A stretch of 64,000 bases of DNA from Mytilus trossulus. Taxonomy: Eukaryota. Shown here piece by piece: positions 423-46,547 of this stretch (within the stretch, counting starts at the first letter, position 1; each line of letters opens with the position of its first letter). The position numbers and the translations under genes are program-made. The notes under the pieces were generated by a model. The model saw only the letters and a program-made list of their open reading frames with translations. It did not search any database and was not told the origin of the DNA. Location: assembly GCF_036588685.1 (NCBI RefSeq), contig NC_086373.1:66030001-66094000 (forward strand), written 5' to 3'.

Positions 423-3400
423 CTGAAATAACAGAAAATTACAATGATTCAGTGTCTTAGTGTCCATGATGGATATTCAGCTGTAAATATGTCATTCTTC
501 TTAAAACACATTGTTTTACAGAGTGGAAGATATGTCCATTTGTAAGCTCAATTTGGTATTCCCATTTCTTGTTTAAACTAAAACAAGAACTTTAAGTTTA
601 ATAATTTTTAATAGGCACGTCTCTATATTTGATGATCATGTGTTGTTACTTTGCTCTCCAAATAATGTAGCCCCACAGCTCCTTTTCATTCATTTGGGGG
701 AAAAAATAAGTTAAATGATACTTACTTCATCAGATCTATAGCAAAGGCTCCCTCTGACTGTGTATTGTAGGTCACTTTCTGTGGTTCTGGAGGCTCAGCA
801 ATGAAATGGTCCCATAAAACATTACAGGCCTGTTTAGCTATGTCATAACATCCAACCTGGTAGGCAATCTAAAATACAAATTGTATGTATATTAAAGTGG
901 GTTTTTTTTCAAAATCTTATAGATGCATTTATTATTGCAAATCTTTCATTTTAATATTATTGAAACATCATTTATAAACCTAATAGAATTTCTTGGATAA
1001 TTTTAAAAACTTTTTACTCTTGAAAAGTATTCTGTAGTATATGTAATATTAAATCCATCAAGATAATTTCTGATTTCTCATTACCACAAATAACAAATAT
1101 ACACATTTTCTCACATGAAAGTCAAAGTCATATGAATGAGAAAAAAATCTACTTATAAATTTAAATGTAAATTATATCATAAATTTCATTCTGTTATGGT
1201 TGTCACTTAACAGTCAGAGCTCAGACATAAACAAGTCTAATTTTGTTTTTGACTTAAATAAGTCGAAACATGTATTTATTATAAAAATGTAGTTTCAATT
1301 TTAGACTTATCTAAGTCAGAAAATGACAGACTTGTTTAGGTCTATTTATGTTGGTGAAAAAACTTAATGTTACTTTGTGGCCAAACTACACCACCTATGA
1401 CAGCAAAAACCTGTATGAGAGTTCACAAGGACTTGAGCTATCTATATTTAATTATCTAATTAAACATCCTTACTAAACACAGATGTTTTTACCTCATTAA
1501 GTGTGATTCCAGGTGGTTGCATTGTAAGGTTAATTAACATTATCTCCGATTTTTTAGACTCTCAATCATATTTTTCTTTTGAAGGCAAAGCATTGGCTTT
1601 CAATGTTGTCATTATTTGATTTAGATGCATGACCTCCTTATAAATATGCGTGGGTCTTGAAGTTAACCAATTTTGATCACTCATGGACTTGTAGGAGTCG
1701 ATATTTGCAACTTTTTGTATCTGGTCAATTATTTCTTGTTTAACAAAATTAGACTTATTCAAGTCGTATTTTGTCTTACATTAAAGGGAGACAAATCCTA
1801 AAACTTACAAATTTAGACCTCTATGAGTCAAAAGCAGATTCAGACTTATTTATGTCTGAGCTCTGACTGCTTAAGTTATTGAAGATTCACTTCCAAAAAT
1901 TTGCAATAGAACTTATTTTAGAAACATCCTTTTCAATAAGGATGGCAAATCTTAATTGAGTCAGTATAAAACATTCTTTTTTTGTACAATTATCTAAAAT
2001 ATAATTGCAGTCACTTACCTGGCTAAGGAAAGCCCAAGTAATCAGTACAGGTAAGGGACTTGATGCTAAGATTGGTTTAGAGCTATCTCCTATCCCTCCT
2101 CCTATGACCTGAAAACTTAATGAAGTAACTTACCTGACTAAGGAAAGCCCAAGTCATCAGTACAGGTAGGGGACTTGATGCTAAGATTGGTTTAGAGCTA
2201 TCTCCTATCCCTCCTCCTATGACCTGAAAACTTAATGAAGTAACTTACCTGACTAAGGAAAGCCCAAGTCATCAGTACAGGTAGGGGACTTGATGCTAAG
2301 ATTGGTTTAGAGCTATCTCCTATCCCTCCTCCTATGACCTGAAAACTTAATGAAGTAACTTACCTGACTAAGGAAAGCCCAAGTCATCAGAACAGGTAGT
2401 GGACTTGATGCTAAGATTGGTTTAGAGCTATCTCCTATACCACCTCTTATGACCTGAAAACTTAATGAAGTAACTTACCTGACTAAGGAAAGCCCAGGTC
2501 ATCAGTACAGGTAGTGGACTTGATGCTAAGATTGGTTTAGAGCTATCTCCTATACCACCTCCTATGATCTGTCCATCACCATTATAAGCTGCTACGGCAA
2601 AAACATACTTCTCATCTGGTTTCAAACCTGATACTCTTAGCTCTGATTGGTTGCTTGGCACCTAATAAAGATGAAAAATACTGTTAGATGATGCAGAAAC
2701 TGGTGATTATCAAAAATAACTTAGTGATGAATTATAACTTTGGTAAATAATGTGCATATATAAGATTTTACATACATATATCAGCTATAAATAAAAACAT
2801 TTTTCACCTGATCAACTTTTGTCTTTAAAATTTATCAAAATCACAAACATGAATTTGAAGTTGTATTTATTGCGAATCCTATCATAGTTTTCAACAGATT
2901 CACCTGCAAGTTACCTGTCCATTTAAACTTTTGTAAGTTCTATTGTCCAAACTAACAAATACAACACCTTTTGTTCTCTGTTTAGTTTATTCAATGGGAC
3001 ATTTAAATTTCTTGCAAGAGAAATCTATCAGTCACTGATTAATTTACCTGAACAAAAAATTGAACTGTCAATGATGGAAATACATGTACAAATTTGTAAT
3101 TATAAAACTGCATGTGATGTTGTATTTATTCAATCAATATCACATTTTCAATTTATTTGATATAAACACTGATTTCAAAATTAAAAGTTGATTTCTGATC
3201 AAATTTCAACCTTTTTCCCATTAAAATTTGCTATTTTTTAGTCTGTTCATAAATAAAAACTTAAAATGATAATGTTTAAATAAAGGTCTTCATAAATGTA
3301 TTCTTCATAACTGAAGAACCATGAAAAACATGCAGATTCTTTGAAACATAAATGCATGCAGTACTTAAAACTAGAGGCTCTAAAGAGCCTGTGTCGCTCA

Positions 3401-6400
3401 CCTTGGTCTATGTGCATATTAAACAAAGGACACAAATGGATTCATGACAAAATTGTCTTTTGGTGATGGTGATGTGTTTGAAGTTCTTACTTTACTGAAC
3501 GATTTTGCTTCTTACAATTATATCTATCATGAACTTTGCCCATTAGTAACAGAGAACTATATTTGGTAAAAATTTACATAAATTTACCAAATTAATGAAA
3601 ATTGTTAAAAATTGACTATAAAGGGCAATAACTCCTTAATGGGTCAATTGACCATTTAGGTCATGTTGACTTATTTGTAGATCTTACTTTGCTGAACATT
3701 ATTGCTGTTTACAGTTTATCACTATCTTTAATAGTATTCAAGATAACCAAAAACGGCAAAATTTCTTTAAAAATTACCAATTGGAGGGCAGCAACCCAAC
3801 AACCAGTTGTCCAATTCATCTGAAAAATTCAGGGCAGATAGATATTGACTTGATTAACAATTTAACTTCTTGTCAGATTTGCTCTAGATGCTTTGGTTTC
3901 ATAGTTATAAGCAAACTAGAGGCTCCAAAGAGCCTGTGTCGCTCACCTTGGTCTATGTGAATTATAAACAAAGGAAGCAGATGGATTCATGACAAAATTG
4001 TGTTTTGGTGATGGTGATGTGTTTGTAAATCTTACTTTACTAGTCTTGCTGCTTACATTTATCTCTATCTATAATGAACTTGGCCCAGTAGTTTCAGTGG
4101 AAAATGTTAATAAAAAATTTACAAATTTTATGAAAATTGTTAAAAATTGACTATAAAGGACAATAACTCCTTAGGGGGTCAATTGACCATTTCGGTCATG
4201 TTGACTTATTTGTAAATCTTACTTTGCTGAACATAATTGCTGTTTACAGTTTATCTCTATCTATAATAAAATTTAAGATAATAACCAAAAACAGCAAAAT
4301 TTCCTTAAAATTACCGATTCAGGGGCAGCAACCCAACAATGGGTTGTCAGATTCATCTGAAAATTATAGGGCAGATAGATCTTGATCTGTTAATAATTAT
4401 ACCCCGTGTTGGATTTGCTCTAAATGCTTTGGTTTTTGAGTTATAAGCCAAAAACTGCATTTTACCCCTATGTTCTATTTTTAGCTGTGGCGGCCATCTT
4501 GATTTGATAGTCTGGTCACCGGACACATTTTTTAAACTAGATACCCCAAAGATGATTATTGCCAAGTCTGGATTAATTTGGCCTAGTAGTTTCAGAGGAG
4601 AAGATTTTTGTAAAAGATAACTAAGATTTACGAAAAATGGTTAAAAATTGACTATAAAGGGCAATAACTCCTAAACGGGTCAACTGACCATTTCGGTCAT
4701 GTTGACTTATTTGTAAATCCTACTTTGCTAAAAATTATTGCTGTTTACAGTTTATCTCTATCTATAATAATATTCAAGATAATAACCAAAAACTGCAAAA
4801 TTTCCACAAAATTACCAATTCAGGGGCAGCAACCCAACAACGGGTTGACCGATTCATCTGAAAATTTCAGGGCAGATAGATCTTGACCTGATAAACATTT
4901 TTACCCCTGTCTGATTTGCTCTAAATGCTTTGGTTTTTGAGTTATAAGCCAAAAACTGCATTTTACCCCTATGTTCTATTTTTAGCCGTGGCGGCCATCT
5001 TGGTTGGTTGACCGGGTCAAGCCACACATTTTTTAAACTAGATACCCGAAGGATGATTGTGGCCAAGTTTCGTTAAATTTGGCCCAGTAGTTTCAGAGGA
5101 GAAGATTTTTGTAAAAGTTAACGATGACGGACGACGCCAAGTGATGAGAAAAGCTCACTTGGCCCTTCGGGCCAGGTGAGCTAAAAAATCAGAAAATTCA
5201 ACTTTTTATTATAAAATCAGTGCTTATTTTGAACAGATTGAATATATATTATTGACATTGAATAAATACTGTATCACACGCAGTTTATGTGAGTTTATAC
5301 ATGTATTTCAATCAACAAAGAAGATATTTTTTTGGTCAGGCAAATTAATCAATGAGTGATAGATTTCTCCTAGAAGAAATTTAAATGTCCAAGTGAATAA
5401 ACTACAAATAGAACAATAGCTATTGTATTGATTCAATGGGACAGGTATTAAACTTGCAAAAGTTTAAATACCTTGGTAAAGAGCAGACGACTCTGTGGAA
5501 AACTTTCATTTGGTTCGCTATAAGTGTGTCTTCTAAAATAGTCAAAAGAACACGGCAAAATACTGATTAGTCTGTGTGTAATTATTCACAACTTGGTTAG
5601 ACTCCAAAAACTATGAAATTTATCAAGCTCATTACCAAAATAAGAGAATTAACAAAATCCTGATTTTAAAGTACAAAAGAAAAATTTAAATATCTATCTC
5701 TATTTCATTTTTCAATTTTTTCTTTTTAGACTTACAGATTCTCCAGTTCCTGGCAAGAAATAATCATTGAGCCTCACTTTCACATTACTTCCAGATGATG
5801 ACCTTGCAAACAACTTGTACCATGAAACCTGAATTAAACAATATAACATATTTCAAAATTAAGTATCATGAAAATTAAAACATATAATCACAAAATAAGA
5901 GCAAATATTAAATTTTTACACTATTGTTAAACTTTCTGAACATCTTCTATCGGTAAAGCCTCGTAACAAATTTTTGTTTTCTGGTTTATTGTTTTAAGCA
6001 TAAAACAGGCTGTTTCACTTTTTGTCATGCAGGGCCTTTCATAAAATACTATTCCGTATGGATTTGTCTCATTTTAAAGGCAATTTCATAATCAGTGAAA
6101 CCTTTCAAATAAAACTGTTAAATTGGACACAGGAAATACTTACTTTTGGTTTGTGTGTATTGTTTGTTAGATTCAGATAAATTGATTGTTGTGTTTAAAC
6201 TTTCAGTACAAATATTTCATGAATATTCTCAACAAAGGTAAAATTCAGAATAAACTGAACATTTTTTTTATATAAATAAGGCAGTTAGTTTTCTCGTTTG
6301 AATTGTTTTACATTGTCTTATCTTGGCATTTTATAGCTTACTATGCGGTATGGGCTTTGCTCATTGTTGAAGGCCGTACTGTGACCTATAGTTGTTAATG

Positions 6401-9400
6401 TTTGTGTCATTTTGGTCTTTTGTGGATAGTTGTCTCATTGGCAATCATACCACATCTTCTTTTTTATAGTGTCAAGAAAATAAGTTATAGGTGTAAAATT
6501 CAACATACCTGTTGTCCATCCTCAGATTTGAAAGGTGAAGGTTTAAATATCATCATGGTATCTGTTCTACACAGAAGTATAGGTGCTGTTGGTACTTTGG
6601 TAGGTTTAGGATCAGTAACTACAGCATTATTGACTGTGAATATCATTTTCTCCTCAGTCTGAGCTTTCTGTATACATGCTACGGCATCCTGTATAGTGAG
6701 ATTGTAAAATCATTAAAAACAAAAACAAAATGTGTAATGATATTTATTATCTAAGCCATTAACACTATGTTTTGGTCAATTTTGAATTTAAGGTCAATGA
6801 TTGATAAGAAAGACTTAACAAAAATATTGTTCTTCTTTACATTCTTACATCTTTGTGAATAAACTTTAAACATTTTCATCTTGAACTATTATATTTAATA
6901 TACGGGGGAGGGGAAGGACCCTTATTGGTCATACTCCTTTTAGTATTGAAAGTTTAATATTTTTCATAATGGTCCACATATTCTATTTTTCTTCAAATTC
7001 ATAACATGCATAAGGAACATGTTCTTTTAACATGGAAACATTAGGTATGACAACCCTTTCATTTTTCCTTTATTTAGACTGCCACAATAGCAAAATCTAA
7101 GAACAGAACAGACTTTTGATAAAGAAACAAAATTTAAATCAATCAAAACCTATAAACCAACCAAATCACATTTTGTTTATCAGCTGGAAATAGGCAAAAA
7201 AGTTGGCAATTTTAAGAATCTCATTTCCAAACTTTCCAATTTTTCTACTTTCATAACTCATTTAAAGTCAAGATGTTTTGTTTCAACTGTAAGCAGTTTT
7301 AAAGAAAAAATTAGCAATACAAGCAAACACATAATCATAGCTTCCTACCACTATTTTCTTCTGCATGGAAGATAAATATAAAAGTTAATTGATCTTGTAT
7401 ATATTTTACCTCTAGAAGTTTTTTCTGTTCTTTTGTATATCCTACACCATCACTCAGTAACAGTGACCTCTGCATCAGCAGGAGAGATTTAGATAACTGG
7501 TTTCTATTACATCTGGTTAACAGTTCTTCATAGTTCTCTACATAACTACTCATCATTTCTCCACCCTCTCCCTAAAATAAAAACATTTCTCCATTGGATA
7601 TTTTTTTTATTAGTAAAGTTTCATTTGACTTTTACTTCTTTGAGAATGTACAAATCTGAAGCAAGTCCAGTAAAAATGCAATACCAAAAATCTTAAATTG
7701 TTGTATGGTACAATTTTCAATCTATTTTTAAAAAAAATCATAAAAAATTTAAGCAAGCTGCCTTCAAATAATAAAACGAGTCATTAACATACATGAAATT
7801 ATAGGTTTACCTGTTGTAGCAAAATTTGCAATATTCTAGGTCTGTTTGATTTGTCTTCTCTTTTCTCCTACCCAATAAATAATTACCCTCTTTTCCACAT
7901 CATCAGATATAATTGGTTTCTACAAATATTGACTTACATATTCCATTTTGGAACAGGTTCTCCTTTTAAATGGCTGATTACTCTTAGGTGCTGGTTCAGG
8001 GGCCAGACTGGTCAGTTTAATGCTGACCCTATGATACATCAAGATGAGTTCCAAATGGAGATCTTTAATTGTATTCCATACTGCCATGGCAGAGCCTCTC
8101 ATACTCTCTGGTATCAAGTCCATTTTGCTGGCTTGAGCATCCTCGTCTTTTGCTTCGGTCATTGTGGTTGGTTCCCTTGTTCTTGGTCCTGGCGCTTCCT
8201 CTTCTTTCGTATCTGTTATTTTTGTATTCTCTCTTGTCTGAGGGTCTGGTGTGAAAACATCTTCATTCAAATCCTTAAAACAAAAACATTTGTTTTTCTT
8301 TGACATGCATTTTTATTACAGTGACTTCAAGCCCCAAAATTCCTAAGTGTTTTGAATATGCATGAAATATTTGCCACTGAATTTTCAACAGAGCACAATC
8401 AAGCCAATAAACAAAACTCATCCGATAAGCCAGGTATTTTTTATTTAATTTTGAATCAAAGTTTAAGAAGGTCCATACCTTAATACTAAGGTCAACTAAT
8501 TTGAGACAATAAATACCCTTTTGTTATAAAAGTTTTTGTTTGTCTAAAAAAAAAAAGATATAAATCACAGCCCTACCACCTAAAAAGATATTTTCTCATA
8601 ATTTTATCATTAAGTATAAGAATATAGAGGTTTTGAATCCAAATATCTTTAGATGAAAGATTCTTAAACTGGAGCTATTTTGGCATAAAATGCAAGAAAT
8701 ATAAAACTAAAACTAAAAGGAAAAACAAAAACAAAAATCAAAAATTCTATAAATACTGATGAGACATGGCAAGTGAATGTTTGAATGCTTTTATGATAGA
8801 TTTATAATACTTTTTTTTCTAAACATTTTAAGGAGTCAAAATATTTCAATATTTTATTAAAATTGAGCCTGAAAAGTCACACAAGTTTTCATAAGTGAAA
8901 ACTGAAAATGTTGTCTGCTTCAAATGTTTAAATCTGGTTTTAAATTCTGTCTCTTAAGTTTTACGTCCACACATAAGAAGTTAATCTTTGACATAATATG
9001 GTGCATGAATTGAACAAGACTTTGTTATAACAGTAACAGAACTTAATCACATTCAAGTTCTGTCTAATTTGTTATAAACATTATACCACCACATATTAAG
9101 AACGAACCAACACAAAACAGGTATAACTTCATTGTACCTTTGTTAGAACATATATGGTTAAAAATAACAAAATAAAGTTAAAAACAAATTTCCAAACATG
9201 TAAACGTTTTCAATAACATCTTGTTATTACACATGTTAAGCAATTCAAAAATATTTGTTTAGCTTCACTCTTACTAATTAAATTTTCAAAACATAAAATA
9301 TCTATACTTATTTTTTCATCCAAAAAAGAGGTTAAGAATTGAAAGGTTTTCAATTAGTATTTTCCACCATCAGATATTTGAAGCAATTTCAAAATTTTGT

Positions 9401-18400: not shown

Positions 18401-19276
18401 TATTGAATTATCTCATTGAATAAAATTCATTTAAGAAACAATTATGACTACCAAAATCTATTCAATGTTACTTAAATTTGTAATGAATTATATTACATGT
18501 ATGGTATGAATTCACTGTGGTACGACTTAGCAGTGGACAAGTTTGCATTGGTACAGGTTTGTTTTTAGCAGCCAAGTTGACATTGGTAAGAGTTTGCAAT
18601 GAGGGGGATAGGACCTTTATCAGGACTCTGGGATCAGGTGTTTTTAAGCTCGGGATTTCAGGATTCACCCTTGAGGGATCCGGGAATTCTTTTTTTCGGA
18701 TTTGGGACCTCGGGATTTCGTATTTTTAAACCCCGGTATATCAGGATTACGTGTTTTTAAACCGGGATTTCAGGATCAGGACCCCTCTTATCTCCCCTCT
18801 GCAATGGTACGATAATTATTATTTGGAATGATGATTCGTGAGGTGGGGGAAGTGTTACGGGATTGCTTCCCTTAGTTGCCGCAAGTGGTTGAGCTAATGA
18901 AGTACTTCTTCAGCTTAGTCCATTTACATACTGCTTTGTAACAAAGTGGTATTGGTGGATACATGCAATTTTGTAATGAAAATCATGCTCTCCATTTACA
19001 AATGCAAGGGGAAGCACCTGCTAGTGCTAATTGCATATCTATGCCTATGGATGGCAATTTACATTATTAAATTTCTTATACTAACGCTCTAGAAGAAGGT
19101 TCGTCTGCAGGCTTTTTGTAGCCAGGGCTATTTCGTTTACGCATATAACCCATAAACTTTTTGATTTCTTGGTCCAGCGACTGGAAAACTGGATTTGTTT
19201 TGTCCTTGCTGTAGAAAGAACTTGGTTGACCCCTGTTTATAGAGGCAACCGCAGCACTCTTCAACAGTGCGGCCAT
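275..19276 (-). CDS. CFAP54: Cilia- and flagella-associated protein 54, 5' part (17 coding exons, ~1171 codons; gene continues beyond left edge)
   Basis: Exons in transcript order: 19086-19276, 16892-16997, 16359-16502, 14315-14486, 13835-13893, 13217-13360, 12720-12833, 11818-12342, 10727-11303, 10222-10457, 7938-8273, 7410-7571, 6509-6688, 5736-5828, 2479-2661, 726-868, 275-422. All introns are GT..AG and phase-consistent with no stops. The spliced N-terminus (TLFELWNKYEPKLPEIYYQEKLLQMGDFL..EYSLALWQCYDRYL..LCWLVYNGTIHIYSISRHLM..SVPLLSVKYLPWRSTLYTAVCQ..AFARRGLAKINEL) matches the CFAP54 N-terminal domain as recalled from the vertebrate protein. Confidence 0.9.
726..868 (-). CDS. CFAP54: CFAP54 exon 16
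   Basis: IAYQVGCYDIAKQACNVLWDHF.., phase 2 out. Confidence 0.85.
1211..1869. mobile_element. Non-autonomous DNA transposon (MITE) with 5-bp target-site duplication
   Basis: Terminal inverted repeats CAGTCAGAGCTCAGACATAAA / TTTATGTCTGAGCTCTGACTG; CTTAA directly repeated at 1206-1210 and 1870-1874. Confidence 0.75.
2019..2568 (-). repeat. 115-bp tandem repeat made of the last 90 nt of CFAP54 exon 15 plus a 25-nt GT..AG spacer (4 extra copies)
   Basis: Exon-like blocks 2019-2108, 2134-2223, 2249-2338, 2364-2453, 2479-2568; spacer GTAAGTTACTTCATTAAGTTTTCAG on the minus strand. Confidence 0.95.
2479..2661 (-). CDS. CFAP54: CFAP54 exon 15
   Basis: VPSNQSELRVSGLKPDEKYVFAVAAY..IGDSSKPILASSPLPVLMTWAFLSQ. 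Confidence 0.88.
2921..5470. mobile_element. Old foldback/palindromic element, split by a nested insertion
   Basis: About 2921-3200 and about 5190-5470 are diverged inverted repeats (e.g. CATTTAAATTTCTT..GAAATCTATCA vs TGATAGATTTC..AAGAAATTTAAATG). Confidence 0.6.
3369..5185 (+). mobile_element. Helentron-type non-autonomous (HINE/pearl-like) element; a complete copy (3914-5185) follows or interrupts a truncated copy (3369-3912)
   Basis: Head AACTAGAGGCTCxAAAGAGCCTGTGTCGCTCACC occurs twice; internal ~500-bp repeated core; GACG microsatellite; 3' hairpin TGGCCCTTCGGGCCA followed by GGTGAGCTAAAAA, the inverse of the head GCTCACC; A-run flanks. Confidence 0.7.
5736..5828 (-). CDS. CFAP54: CFAP54 exon 14
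   Basis: VSWYKLFARSSSGSNVKVRLNDYFLPGTGES. Confidence 0.85.
6275..6467 (+). repeat. Interspersed repeat (SINE-like 3' part); related fragments near 6000-6080, 16660-16745, 20280-20480, 45780-45890
   Basis: Shared motifs GCCTTT.ATAGCT.ACTAT, GTTGTCTC.TTGGCA, CATACCACATCTTCTT and AGTCAGGA.CCTG recur across the window. Confidence 0.5.
6509..6688 (-). CDS. CFAP54: CFAP54 exon 13
   Basis: DAVACIQKAQTEEK..VPTAPILLCRTDTMMIFKPSPF..GQQ. Confidence 0.85.
7410..7571 (-). CDS. CFAP54: CFAP54 exon 12
   Basis: GEGGEMMSSYVENYEELLTRCNRNQLSKSLLLMQR..QKKLLE. Confidence 0.82.
7938..8273 (-). CDS. CFAP54: CFAP54 exon 11
   Basis: DLNEDVF..VWNTIKDLHLELILMYHRVSIKL..SKMEY, donor GTAAGT. Confidence 0.8.
10222..10457 (-). 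CDS. CFAP54: CFAP54 exon 10
   Basis: DPGGIKESS..QLLQARDILELGLQNVAYARKA..DGTSIADVSWAK, phases fit. Confidence 0.82.
10727..11303 (-). CDS. CFAP54: CFAP54 exon 9
   Basis: LIGEEKYSWDEKALELL..IIVDAALILWNK..DPALTAEVVLRLALVLE, open across 577 nt. Confidence 0.85.
11818..12342 (-). CDS. CFAP54: CFAP54 exon 8
   Basis: MAVMVFKRSVYETRRKPK..PWPRTPTERLLADMF..VLGYLR, 525 nt, phase 0/0. Confidence 0.88.
12720..12833 (-). CDS. CFAP54: CFAP54 exon 7
   Basis: AFARRGLAKINELNKLES..FRHATVK, donor GTGAGT. Confidence 0.88.
13217..13360 (-). CDS. CFAP54: CFAP54 exon 6
   Basis: VLEFLLWACMCMETSVPLLSVKYLPWRSTLYTAVCQSYFDCKASHHAE. Confidence 0.88.
13835..13893 (-). CDS. CFAP54: CFAP54 exon 5
   Basis: TIHIYSISRHLMSLGHSAR, phase 1 in, phase 0 out. 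Confidence 0.85.
14315..14486 (-). CDS. CFAP54: CFAP54 exon 4
   Basis: FRALMGKS..LRLVMQVVLPKESLCWLVYNG, donor GTAAGT. Confidence 0.88.
16359..16502 (-). CDS. CFAP54: CFAP54 exon 3
   Basis: EYSLALWQCYDRYLLHFG..FFPEGFDSENAGLT, donor GTAAGT. Confidence 0.88.
16892..16997 (-). CDS. CFAP54: CFAP54 exon 2
   Basis: SDTLFELWNKYEPKLPEIYYQEKLLQMGDFLMTVR, AG/GT flanks. Confidence 0.88.
17616..18012. mobile_element. Palindromic MITE
   Basis: Long terminal inverted repeats CAGGTTGGG..CAACCCACCAAATGGGG..ATGAGTAACAATCCC.CATTTGAGTAATCATT, mirrored at 17941-18012. Confidence 0.75.
18601..18799. mobile_element. Small non-autonomous element with internal CGGGATT repeats and 6-bp target-site duplication
   Basis: Ends GAGGGG / CCCCTC; TGCAAT at 18595-18600 and 18800-18805. 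Confidence 0.65.
19086..19276 (-). CDS. CFAP54: CFAP54 coding exon 1
   Basis: ATG at 19276 (MAALLKSAA..PSSR), donor GTTAGT, phase 2 matches the next exon. Confidence 0.75.
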
Positions 19277-21492: not shown

Positions 21493-21725
21493 CGAATATT
21501 TGAAAGCCATGGATGCATAAAACCAAAACAGTTCAAAAGCTTTATAACCAAAAATGATCTGAAATATTTGCCAAATCGTTCTAAGCCAATGAACATTGTA
21601 CTGTGTGTAAATAAAATGGTTGCTTTTATCCCTCATTATTTTTTCTTAGTAACACAGATGAGTGTTTAAAGCATTTGTCATGACAGAAACAGCAATGGGC
21701 TGATGATATGTCCTAAGCTTTTAGA

Positions 21726-24700
21726 ATGACCGGTGGTAAGGAGACGGGGTTTAAAGATGTCAATATTGTAAAACCCAATTCCACGGCTACACAAAACACC
21801 CAGCAGGCAGAAATTGAAGAACCCTTAGCTGGAAGTTCAAATGTTCAACAGAGTCCTACAGGCAGGAGTCCGGAACACATGATAGATCATTGGAAAAGTT
21901 TTCTTGCAGTTTCCTCAAAAGAACCCTCCAAGAATCTTCAACAAAACATCTCTCCTAAAACACAAACATCACAGCTATCGGATATATCACAGTCACAACA
22001 CAATAAAGACCAACAATATAATTACAGCAATGTAGGAACAATCATATCACTACCAAACAATACAGTACAATTTCAAAAATCAGAAACAAGTCCGGTTAAT
22101 ATCGTCACATCTCACGAAAACCGGACTTTAACCGTAGATCCAAAACAATATGGTAATCCTGACTATCAAGTTCATACTGCTGGAAAATTTCAAAATCATG
22201 ATATAAATACCCGACACCAGTCAATAACGTTTGCCAACAGTTCGTCGCAACCAGAGAGCAATGTTTCTTCCCCTGAACACAGATTAGTAATAGCTGAAAA
22301 TATAGAACAATCAGTAGTTCCAACAAAGAAAACAAAAAGTAATGTTAACTGGAATATGGAAAAATTAGTACAAAACGATGCTGATATGTCAACTGAAAAG
22401 AACAAAATACTTACAAATCTTCATAACAACGAAAGCAAACTACATCAAGGTATACTGAAGTCAACACAGCCAGCCAAGGAACAACACAATCGTTCCTATT
22501 TTTATGGAAGCCAAGGAGGTCAGCAAATTTCTGAACCAGAAAAACGGGTAAATCTTATGTTCAAACAACCAGCACAGCAACATGATATGAATACATCAGT
22601 ACAGGATCAACGAAATCTGCAAAAAACGAACTACCAAAGTCCACCATTCACGCTAGCAACTCCACAAAACATCCATCAAATGCAACTGCAATCACAATAC
22701 CTTTATTCTGCACATCAACCTAGTCAGACTCACGGTCAACAGCCTCCTAACCATGAAAATAACTATCCAAATTTACAAGTTAACCAAGAACAATATACAC
22801 CACACAATCCTTTTCAACAACCAAAATATCTACCTAACTTGCCTAATCAACAGCCACATAACCCACCAAGCATTGTCAATCAACATAATCAATATCCACC
22901 GAACACTTCTAACCAAACGTTACAATACCAATCTAACTTGCCTAATCAACAACTACAATACCAACATAACTTGCCTAATCAACAACTACAATACCAAACG
23001 GACACGACTAATCAACATCCTCAGTATTCACCAAACACACCTTATCAACAAGTGCAATATTCACCAAACATGGCTAATCAACAGTTGATGTGTTCACCAA
23101 TTACGGCTAATCAACAGCTACAAAATACACCAACGAACACCGCGTATCAACATCTACAACATGCTCCAACAAACACGGCTAATCAACAGCTACAGCATGC
23201 ACCACAGAACACGGATAATCAACAGCTACAACATGCACCACAGAACACGGGTAATCAACAGCTACAACATGCACCACAGAACACGGGTAATCAACAGCTA
23301 CAACATGCAACACCGAAACACACCGCTTATCAAAAGCTACATTCACCACCGAACACGGCTAATCAGAAGCTTCAACATTCACCAACGAACACGGTTAATC
23401 AACAGCTACAACATGCACCACCGAACACGGGTAATCAACAGCTACAAAATGCACAACCGAAACAAACCGCTTATCAAAAGCTACAACATGCACCACCGAA
23501 AACGGCTAATCAACAGCCTCAATATTCACAAAATACCGCTAATCAACAACTACAGTATTCACCAAACACGGGTAATCAACAACTACAACACACATCAATG
23601 CACATGGCTAATCAACAACCACCGTATTCACCAAACACTGCTTATCAACAGCTATCAAATACGCTTAAAAAACAACCACCGTATTCACCAAACACGGCTG
23701 ATCAATCACAACTGTATTCATCGAATATTACTAGTCAACAACTACTGTATTCACCGGCAAAAGTCGAACAACAGCTACCATATCCTGAAAACATAAGCAG
23801 TCAACAGTTTGGATTTCACGAACAATATCCACCAAACAAAGCTAATGAGGAACAAGTCTCGCAGCTCAAACACGAAAGTTTCAACAAGAATATTGCTGAT
23901 CAACAGGATTTCCAACAGTCAGGACAGAAACATGAAAGTTTTAATACTGACCAACCGCTCACACAAGATAATCATCACCAGCAGGTTGCAAAGATTGAGA
24001 GAGGACAACACGGACAAAATCGTATTGAAATACATCATTCTAATCTAAATATGCAACCAACTGCTCAGCAGATACAAAACCAACAGACTCAAGTTCAAAA
24101 AAGTTCCCTAGTAAGTCAGGAACTTCAGCATACACAAACACAAAATGGAAGTCTATATGCTCATGCAGCTCTTTCGCCGTTTACAAAACAGACAAGGAGT
24201 ACAGGTGGGACTGTTGAAGCTGAAAATCAACATGCCGGACAAAGGTCAACGATATTAGATGTAAAAGTGACAGACGATCATAAGAAAGAGAAAATACAAT
24301 CCCAGAAGAGAAAGATTCAATCAAAGCATACAACGAAAGACAGCATACAAAAGATAGAACTGGATTTTATTGCTTCGCCACCTGTACTATTTACTCCTGA
24401 ATATCTTATGTTGAAAATACCCAAACAAGAGACAACAAATGCAAAAGCAGTGAGTAATGAGATACATAAAAGGAGAGGGCAGTCTCCTGTCGATGGTTCC
24501 GAGAGTTTAGAAGCCGGGCCTGTGAAGAAGCTGAAGTTAGAGGAGGTTAGAATAAGCACTGCGAATATAGATCAGTATCCAGAAAGCGGTGAGTAATATA
24601 ATAGTAATTCAGGAATATGCATCATGATAATAAATGTAATGTGGCGTTTTACACACAATTTTTAAACATGTGTTGGAATCCTTTTAATCGTTTTTTTTTT

Positions 24701-38112: not shown

Positions 38113-38431
38113 TTAAACTTTTGGAGCACTTCTATCATTAGTGGTTGCTTTCTTCAATCTCATTCCATGTCTGATATCTCCTAAAAGAGCACTTCTTTCA
38201 TTGGAAGCTGCAGGAGCATTCACTGCTGGTGGAGGAGGTGGACCTTTAGCAGGTGGTGGAGGTGGAGCTAATAATGGAGGGGGTGGAGCTTTAGGTGGAG
38301 GCGGAGCTACTGGAGCAGGTGGTGCTTTTGTGGGCTGAGCTGAAGACTTGGATAAAGATTTTGAAGATGAGTACATTTTAGCTTCTTTGGAACTTTTTTC
38401 TATTGATGTTGTTTTTCGTAAGGAAGACTTT
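38113..38431 (-). CDS. Polyproline + WH2 actin-monomer-binding motif (WIP/verprolin type); terminal exon, possibly the whole CDS from ATG 38376 (87 aa)
   Basis: PPPP tracts then ERSALLGDIRHGMRLKKATTNDRSAPKV*, matching the WH2 helix-LKK-NDRSAP signature of WIP; acceptor TTTCAG at 38432; AAAATG context at 38376. Confidence 0.75.
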
Positions 38432-38876
38432 CTGAAAGTATAAATTAAATGCATTATATATAAACAGATATGAAAATTTGCAGAAGTTAAACTCTTTTGC
38501 AAAAATCTGTACTCTCTCTTTACAGGAGAAATTAAAGAACCTGCTTATTATGGATTATTCTATTGTTTTGCTTTTAGTCTGTTAGGTACTGGTTTGTCGT
38601 CTCAATTTATTTATTACTCATATCTTTTTTTATTCATACTCATAGTTACTGAATTATTTCAATACATCTTAGGCTTTTAACTTTTAGCACAGGTCTGATT
38701 AAAAACATGTCTAGATGAATAGCTTCAACATGTTGAAACAACTTTTGTATGTTCAGTTAAAAATCAGTCAAAATGAGTATGACTGACACTCAAAATTTCT
38801 AAATTGCAATAAAACCTCTAAGATTAATCCTCATAATTGTTTTAAAAAACTAAATTTGATGGTTTCCTAATGTTAA

Positions 38877-45087: not shown

Positions 45088-46176
45088 TCGAATCAAAATA
45101 AGGTAAAAGGCCAAATAAAAGTATGAAGTTGAAGAGCAGTGAGGACCAAAATTCCTAAATAGTTTTGCCAAATACAGCTAAGGTAATCTATGCCCGAGGT
45201 AGAAAAGCCTTAGTAGTTTATCAAATAAAGGAATATCTCAGCAGTTTTAGTTCATTGGTGCACTTTGAAGGCCAGTTTGAGCTAAAACATTTTGCATCTA
45301 TTGTTTCTATATCCGTAGAATGTCTGTAAACATTGAATAATTCATTTTTTGACTGAATCCACTGATTGAATCATTGTTTCAATCTATTCACCTTGTCATT
45401 CAACTAACATCTGATGTTAAAAGAAAGAAAATTTCGAAAACACAGGCAAAAATGTTCCATTCAGATTAAAATTAACTATAGGTGTCTGTACATTGCCAAT
45501 GCTCCCATTTGTAGCCTAAGTGGTAATTCATATGACAGGCAAGGTGTATCAGGGAGATAACAATATGAAACTGAGAAATTAAATTTTGGGAAAAGATAGA
45601 AAAACCTGAATGACAAATGTTGATTAAAGAAAATTGAATGGCCAACCCAAGTGGCAAAAATAAGACAAATATCAAATTAATTTGTTTGGTGTATGTTTTC
45701 TTGTTTTGTTAATATTTGGTTTTGGTCGAGTTAATTGATATTTCATATTGTGTCTTTCTATTTTGTAATGTTAAACTACTGTTTCAGGTTAGGTTGAAAG
45801 TTGTCGCCTGTTAAAAGCCTTCAAAATACTGCATTTGTTTGCACCTGTCTTAAGTCAGGAACCTGCTGATCAATGGTTGTGGTATGTTGATAGGGTTCAT
45901 ATGTTCACAAGGAAGTTATGAAACCAAGAGTTGCAAGTGGTACCCAGTGAAGATGAAATCATCCCTTTGTAAATTTTACAGACGCTATCACGAGTTGAGT
46001 GACTGTTATGGAATATCCCTCTTATAGATGATAGGTAGCAGATATGTTTCGTAATGTTATAACTACAATCCTGCCCTTTTTCCCTGAATTTGACCAACAA
46101 AATTGATTTTTTTGCCCAGTTGTTACTTACATGAGCAACACAACGGATGCCACATGTGGTGCAACATCTGCTTATA

Positions 46177-46440
46177 CTCGTGCCAGTTGAGTGACTGTTA
46201 AAAGTCTTGGTATCCAGTATTTGTTTGCAAGTCAAACATTGTTTGTTTCTGCAACCCTTGCAAGAGCCCATAGATGAAGAGCCTTCTTGAGAGGATAAAT
46301 CAGCTCTCACCAGCAAATCTTTAAGGCTTTTGGGCCTATGGAAAGCCAGTACAGATGGCTCGGGAAAGATCTTGGATAGTTTAGAATGTTTTTCGATCTC
46401 TTTCCAATTTTCCCGGATTAGGTGAGATAAGTTGTCAAAT
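46177..46440 (-). mobile_element. Penelope-like retroelement fragment (RT-thumb to GIY-YIG linker)
   Basis: IFPEPSVLAFHRPKSLKDLLVRA..CKGCRNKQCLTCKQI..F.S..TG, the Cys-rich linker that precedes the GIY-YIG domain in Penelope-like elements. Confidence 0.8.
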
Positions 46441-46547
46441 TTTCTTATATATATAACTCGTCTAAACATCAACCCAACAATGTTAGATCTGTAAATGTGC
46501 TTTCGCAAATTTTTGGTTCTTCCCTCGATTCAATATATATATTTATA

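Follow-up and report, generated by a model that had tools for sequence, protein, structure and literature searches.

Minisatellites that cross the boundary between an exon and the following intron have been described in lancelets and in humans. The lancelet "mirage" minisatellites are located in Adh3 and in the globin genes BflGb6 and BflGb9, with units of 10 to 160 bp, and the BflGb9 mirage has a 157-bp unit at the 3' boundary of an exon. In the cited part of that account, many units carry AG/GT signals and normal splicing is undisturbed; the interior of a cluster is homogenised with the cluster ends excluded, and mirages have been suggested as a starting point for novel exons and introns (PMC3087553). 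In humans, donor-spanning VNTRs are present in F7 intron 7 (37 bp), LMNB2 (100 bp), PDGF (81 bp), CBS intron 13, and 6-16. The most upstream donor wins, alone, in F7, LMNB2, and PDGF, while nearby pseudo-donors are also used in IFI6 (6-16) and CBS, as far as the excerpt of this source goes (PMC1557585). Sterically enforced mutually exclusive exons, in the portion of the source cited here, have neighbours less than 50 nt apart that cannot be joined (PMC5740500). For ATP2A1, a new intron is reported to have arisen when an AGGT motif was duplicated in tandem, in a text that in its cited section gives about 60 nt as the minimal human intron (PMC3265369).

The locus compared with these systems is located in a window of 64,000 nucleotides from Mytilus trossulus (contig NC_086373.1, positions 66,030,001 to 66,094,000). 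A 115-bp unit, composed of the final 90 nt of coding exon 16 of CFAP54 and a 25-nt GT..AG spacer, is present here in five copies, all in phase. The best explanation, with a probability of roughly three in four, is a donor-spanning minisatellite, the first donor of which is used and the extra copies of which are removed with intron 16. Literature that deals with CFAP54 together with Mytilus was searched for and none was found.

The array works like a mirage. Four of the six features listed for mirages were found: a head-to-tail unit over an exon-intron boundary, a unit length of 115 bp within the range of 10 to 160 bp, repeated splice signals (donors scoring 13.2, acceptors 8.0), and a homogenised interior with a diverged end. 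Unlike the lancelet mirages, however, the CFAP54 units are without exception complete AG-exon-GT cassettes that keep the phase and are separated by gaps of 25 nt, and the host is a mollusc and not a chordate. Moreover, the CFAP54 copies differ mostly silently, a bias that the cited part of the lancelet account does not describe (PMC3087553). As in the human VNTRs, the first unit spans the exon end and identical donors follow behind the real one. The F7 unit contains only 4 exon bases, whereas the CFAP54 unit takes 90 of its 115 bases from the exon and has an acceptor-like site in front of each extra copy; the excerpted source shows length polymorphism for the human loci, whereas the CFAP54 array is known from the sequence of one haplotype plus read depth (PMC1557585).

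The spacer of 25 nt is also within the distance of less than 50 nt that characterises sterically enforced mutually exclusive exons. Those, according to the part of the source cited, are duplicates of whole exons that replace each other and have transcripts, while the CFAP54 copies are half-exon copies, none of which was seen in transcripts (PMC5740500). They comprise 30 of the 61 exon codons, and a protein made with them would gain 30 residues or lose 31, which is not a like-for-like replacement. The array resembles the ATP2A1 case in the one-step creation of new splice-site pairs by duplication. The ATP2A1 duplicate, as reported in the cited section, supplies both splice sites of a new intron, with the old mRNA being restored, whereas in CFAP54 the old donor already removes all copies (PMC3265369). 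The real CFAP54 exon reads CAG/ATC at the unit boundary, so that there is no donor at this position, and an intron gain of the AGGT type was rejected for this array. In the best reading, the array is an ordinary oddity that adds one more donor-spanning minisatellite to those known, and it would permit a clean test of the "first donor wins" rule and of the suggested origin of new exons and introns from mirages.

The array at the end of CFAP54 exon 16

The gene is the CFAP54 gene of a Mytilus mussel, with an exon peptide 98% identical to protein P0002. The window spells residues 1 to 1293 of P0018 letter for letter across 20 exons; this exact chain covers the exons up to number 20, and later exons were taken from tblastn matches. 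P0018 and P0077 possibly originate from the genome of the window itself or from one very close to it, and they were not counted as independent. In the chain, the exon with the array (2661-2479, 183 nt) is coding exon 16, which corrects the number 15 given in the first-pass annotation. The first 30 codons of this exon gave a weak Fn3 match, which with E = 5.5e-5 (Pfam fn3) does not reach the curated cut-off.

A tandem array with a period of 115, 4.9 copies, 97% matches, and 0% indels was reported by TRF at 2009-2571. All five 90-nt segments on the minus strand end with CAG/GTAAGT, share one reading phase, and contain no stop upon translation, while the four 25-nt spacers are identical to each other and each ends with TTTTCAG (Table 1). 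TRF and translation together thus bore out the earlier description of five in-frame copies with GT..AG spacers and without stops or indels. A recount of the variable sites gave the same 7 synonymous and 3 non-synonymous sites as before, 10 in total, with silent changes at unit positions 12, 15, 54, 55, 63, 72, and 87 and replacements at positions 1 (I/V), 7 (G/R), and 69 (M/I). The consensus of 30 codons given earlier showed the M/I alternative correctly, but it hid the Ile at the beginning of copy 1 and the Gly-to-Arg exchange in copy 2.

The intron following copy 5, on which the first-pass annotation does not comment, likewise reaches an AG at +25, yet 7 of its first 25 letters are unlike the spacer. 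Past the donor hexamer, 12 of 19 positions match the spacer, a value equalled in 2 of the 1,075 windows further down the intron. After this AG follows ATAAT, resembling the AG ATCAT of the exon at the unit boundary. The unit was not found elsewhere in its own genome by a DNA search, which gave three matches, all inside the array.

Table 1. Coordinates of the repeat copies, the spacers, and the neighbouring CFAP54 exons in the window
Feature	Position	Strand	Remarks
CFAP54 exon 15, 93 nt, upstream neighbour	5736..5828	-	Exact chain versus P0018
CFAP54 coding exon 16, 183 nt	2479..2661	-	Exact chain versus P0018; spliced contigs of X7 and X12 use donor 2479
Copy 1, 3'-terminal 90 nt of the real exon	2479..2568	-	Starts with Ile
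Spacer 1, 25 nt, GT..AG, beginning of intron 16	2454..2478	-
Copy 2	2364..2453	-	Private: Gly-to-Arg at unit position 7, silent at 63
Spacer 2	2339..2363	-	Same letters as spacer 1
Copy 3	2249..2338	-	Identical to copy 4; 5' sites as in copy 5; sites 55, 69, and 87 as in copies 1 and 2
Spacer 3	2224..2248	-	Identical to the other spacers
Copy 4	2134..2223	-	Same sequence as copy 3
Spacer 4	2109..2133	-	Identical to the other spacers
Copy 5	2019..2108	-	Private: 55 silent, 69 Met-to-Ile, 87 silent
Unique intron start after copy 5	1994..2018	-	Related to the spacer, 7 of 25 positions different
CFAP54 exon 17, 143 nt	726..868	-	Joined to 2479 in the P0018 chain; intron of 1,610 nt

Evaluation of the array needs to consider that reads of two haplotypes may have been strung into a false array by the assembler, as the copies resemble mosaics of two versions and the second haplotype in run X1 is highly divergent in its introns. 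In X1, the contig over the unit had a depth of 95.9, compared to 28 to 34 for single contigs nearby (28.2 to 32.8 where the contigs match the window exactly). A haplotype with the five copies of the window predicts a mean word multiplicity of 2.875 and hence a depth of about 94, with the contig extent taken as approximately 102 nt including the spacer, as read from the end distances. Because the measured depth agrees with this prediction, on a contig that apparently contains the whole spacer, an artefact is very unlikely. The fit to five copies answers the earlier concern about the assembly with the limitation that X1 is perhaps the source of the window and is not independent of it. In run X2, from organism B, a contig with a depth of about 6 stops at 2538, 30 nt into the repeat. 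The word length of the graph behind the contigs was presumably 31 letters, and a second path joining at 2568 would then break the graph at 2538. This is only a hint of a repeat junction in another species and argues weakly against an artefact. Similarly, the X1 depth leaves little room for shared copies on the second haplotype, which is a hint only with respect to copy number differences between the haplotypes. Among 20 runs, four of which were aligned to the locus, word shares were between 0.05 and 0.63; these values do not distinguish an array from one copy, because up to 0.60 would be attainable with a single-copy allele.

The splice sites of the array and their use

All five donors of the array scored 13.2, representing the strongest type in the gene. 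The four internal acceptors scored 8.0 with the gene's own matrices, a value in the middle of the leave-one-out range of -2.7 to 13.6 for 17 CFAP54 acceptors. Neighbouring copies are not plausibly joinable because introns of less than about 30 nt in animals have been reported, in the cited part of the source, only for myxozoans and a dicyemid (PMC13644364); the earlier statement that 25 nt is too short for a usual animal intron agrees with this. The intron between alternate copies would have 140 nt, below all 55 gaps measured in CFAP54, the shortest of which was about 217 nt. When exon 16 is extended to any of the later donors, translation ends at a stop codon 16 codons beyond the regular exon end.

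Two spliced contigs, record 25 of X7 and record 9 of X12, join upstream exons to exon 16 and cover 2479-2659 once. They run on for 131 and 333 letters, respectively, which match neither the spacer nor a second copy, nor anything else in the stretch examined (2454-6760); judging from their length, these letters should be exon 17. The bin depths of 5.38 and 5.04 are those of a single contig in either run (6.51 x 119/144 and 6.09 x 119/144), so that neither spacer nor second copy is present in the X7 and X12 contigs over exon 16. On the protein level, 20 Mytilus proteins from five species by their labels were examined, and all 17 with the motif had a single, identical 30-residue copy; the main cluster has 38 members, 15 of which were listed. 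When 88 proteins were compared by blastp, 84 of the 85 matching the unit had one copy. The exception, P0001, is an unspliced ORF call from another animal and matched the unit twice. None of the 54 long homologs contained an extra copy (blastp). Absence of an extra copy from the two spliced contigs and the 17 Mytilus models is weak evidence against its use, as the array may be absent from those animals and contigs drop rare forms. Copy 2 alters Gly3, which is conserved in 53 of the 54 homologs, and copy 5 has an Ile at a position where none of the 54 does.

These observations bear on the exon-choice or copy-number device proposed in the first-pass annotation. Copies 3 to 5 would serve as in-frame 30-codon cassette exons, with neighbours barred from each other by the 25-nt gap and with selection keeping the changes silent. 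Phase 0/0 without stops or indels, an acceptor score equal to the median of the gene, and a silent excess with p = 0.005 against a neutral null are consistent with such a device, and donor-to-branch distances of less than 50 nt occur in 57 of 629 human mutually exclusive clusters in the part of the source cited (PMC5740500). The extra copy is nevertheless absent from both spliced contigs, the 17 Mytilus models, and 54 of 54 long homologs, copy 2 is damaged, and inclusion would repeat a segment that does not vary among five species instead of swapping like for like. The 140-nt intron is shorter than any measured gap, albeit in this one gene. In addition, the bias exists mostly between the end copies, which in the inferred order were only 25 nt apart as a pair, so that it is probably older than the 140-nt introns. 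A device of this kind is therefore quite improbable. An array that assembled itself into a bank of in-frame cassettes, with alternate copies being spliced in ciliated tissue at a low rate that depends on copy number and with forms of 30 or 60 additional residues being under selection, has very little probability, which is left to it by the in-phase cassette form and by the unexplained part of the silent excess; if it existed, it would show a mirage in the course of becoming new exons.

Alternatively, donors 2 to 5 may sometimes be used with the spacers kept in the transcript, leading to an early stop and nonsense-mediated decay, and the copy number would tune the CFAP54 output. Four extra perfect donors are available, every extension product has the same early stop, and contigs would under-represent such products. 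Within the cited excerpt, CBS and 6-16 employ two pseudo-donors, while F7, LMNB2, and PDGF rely on the first donor alone (PMC1557585). No such contig was present in X7 or X12, and leakage to later donors leaves the silent excess unexplained, which together makes it unlikely.

As another possibility, a mistakenly joined copy could regenerate a donor via AG/GT and be cut out in a second step by recursive splicing, since the A-to-G change at unit position 1 produces AG/GT in copies 2 to 5. The regenerated donor, however, has a score of 1.8, under all 18 real CFAP54 donors (1.9 to 12.7), and the host intron has only 1.6 kb. Recursive splice sites are typical of very long introns. Such a ratchet is hardly to be expected here.

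The first donor is thus likely the sole donor used, with the four extra copies being spliced out within intron 16, and the array is likely a harmless repeat of the kind known from lancelets and humans. With five perfect donors and four plausible in-phase acceptors that carry diagnostic letters, it is a natural test bed of modest value in a mollusc.

Silent differences between the copies

Silent sites comprise about 24 of the 90 positions of the unit, and 7 silent changes at 10 variable sites gave p = 0.005 under a fully neutral null. This null, underlying the earlier statement of an excess of silent change, is too strict, since copy 1 is the working exon. Sites 54 and 72 (window positions 2515 and 2497) are allelic variants of the working exon because the letters of the extra copies stand at these sites in spliced contigs of other animals; they were present in all four runs compared, including both spliced contigs. 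The comparison of these runs over 2454-6760 informs 2 of the 10 variable sites. A partitioned null, in which sites 54 and 72 were given, five private changes were neutral, and three end-to-end changes were treated as working-versus-dead (42% silent expected), resulted in p = 0.076, with a range of 0.03 to 0.14 that depends on whether site 1 is regarded as junction sequence and sites 12 and 15 as one event or two. The working-versus-dead comparison gave p = 0.025 to 0.12, and all of these values need to be read considering that the locus was chosen after the fact.

The end copies may be designated X (copy 1) and Y (copy 5). They differ in the manner of two working alleles, with changes at 6 of 24 silent and 2 of 66 replacement sites and at 7 of 25 intron sites, so silent divergence agrees with intron divergence (Fisher p = 1.0). 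With the difference between spacer and intron start used as a clock, a dead copy 5 is expected to possess 7 to 9 replacement changes and has 1 or 2 (p = 0.002 to 0.036). Working exons are the most likely source from which the silent excess was inherited. The joining of two diverged working alleles, or an exchange between them, has about an even chance of having produced the bias; a working-copy effect plus chance is a somewhat weaker candidate, and selection on the copies an improbable one.

When steady gene conversion was simulated with the first copy anchored, 32 to 34% of the sites were silent, and at least 70% were in 2 of 180 runs with 8 to 12 variable sites; conversion in a steady state was thus rejected as the sole cause of the bias. 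This outcome and the clock estimate for copy 5 both count against setting the silent excess aside. The earlier suggestions of decoy donors and of a sequence reservoir in exchange with the real exon have loose support. In the inferred order of events, the two copies were not joinable, being separated by 25 nt, at the time at which they acquired their silent differences, which are thus poor evidence for splicing of alternate copies. A silent-site excess in partial copies of an exon need not mean that these copies are used.

Origin of the array and repeats in its surroundings

At sites 12, 15, and 54, copies 3 and 4 carry the letters of copy 5, whereas copy 2 agrees with copy 1; at sites 55, 69, and 87, copies 3 and 4 are like copies 1 and 2. 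This mosaic is the pattern that would be expected if the end copies diverged and unequal crossing-over followed. The AG ATAAT of the intron start and the AG ATCAT of the exon are so similar that the initial misalignment was likely directed by this common motif, from which the AG would also originate. A misaligned exchange at this short motif (AG-AT-AT) would have joined intron position +25 to exon position -90, and the motif, not selection, would have put an AG before each copy. That this AG is in phase would be luck, expected by rough estimate for approximately 1 in 40 of such breakpoints. The founders, X (copy 1 with the spacer) and Y (copy 5 with the unique intron start), would have diverged first, with copy 5 and its intron start presumably being a working allele during this divergence. 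Later and recent unequal crossing-over may then have made the middle copies as mosaics of the 5' part of Y and the 3' part of X, carrying the spacer of X.

Our best guess is that the array arose by joining of two diverged working alleles. CFAP54 haplotypes diverge strongly: only 235 of the 774 letters of the second X1 haplotype align, and the similarity ends 7 nt past the exon-14 donor. A single-copy allele with either of the two intron starts was not seen among the alleles compared. Should the two-allele origin be true, the array would record the birth of such repeats in very heterozygous animals. The part of the second X1 haplotype corresponding to window positions 6502-6736 contains exon 14 with 3 differences, followed by 539 letters unlike the window from 7 nt past the donor.

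Duplicates at exon boundaries were present at 2 of the 56 tblastn-defined CFAP54 exons. A second, older duplicate was observed in L006 at about 6660-6770 (G000:C1), approximately 23.3 kb beyond window position 1. It contains the acceptor and approximately the first 57 nt of the exon encoding residues 2091-2154 of P0018, copied 130 to 140 nt upstream; it is 82% identical, has a one-base frameshift, and shows 2 silent and 2 replacement changes as counted on the alignment. In another animal, P0001 has a tandem partial duplicate at the same exon end, which is independent and read through as one ORF, and P0007 has a nearly identical exon without this duplicate. A metagenome scan brought up no Mytilus allele; it gave three loci, 55% identical and with the exon end at the same place, that are too distant to inform on the array.

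In the 934 kb around the window, TRF reported 403 rows, 192 of them with a period of at least 30 and 40 left after removal of multi-copy and AT-rich entries. Seven of the other arrays were read by eye, and none was an exon-boundary repeat. A seed scan of the same 934 kb, based on the sequence alone, returned 26 local duplicates; an exon boundary was identified for the two in CFAP54 and for no other, so that such duplicates do not seem common nearby, and the scans yielded no set of control mirages for the silent bias. A 49-bp minisatellite with about 43 copies and 96% matches is located at L039:3844-5940; it shares little across the 934 kb, and no link to an exon was seen.

Some other features of the window were observed. 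Intron 16 contains, at about 1209-1875, inverted ends of approximately 30 nt flanking a 670-nt stretch that looks MITE-like by eye. The CFAP54 start at 19276 is positioned head to head with a 959-codon open frame at 21717-24593 on the plus strand, which is Gln/Pro/Asn-rich and has a coding tandem repeat of 33 to 36 bp. On the minus strand, 38116-38544 encodes a proline-rich stretch followed by a motif that we take to resemble the WH2 actin-binding domain, and the open frame at 45900-46529, also on the minus strand, presumably resembles the tail of a Penelope-type retroelement before the GIY-YIG domain.
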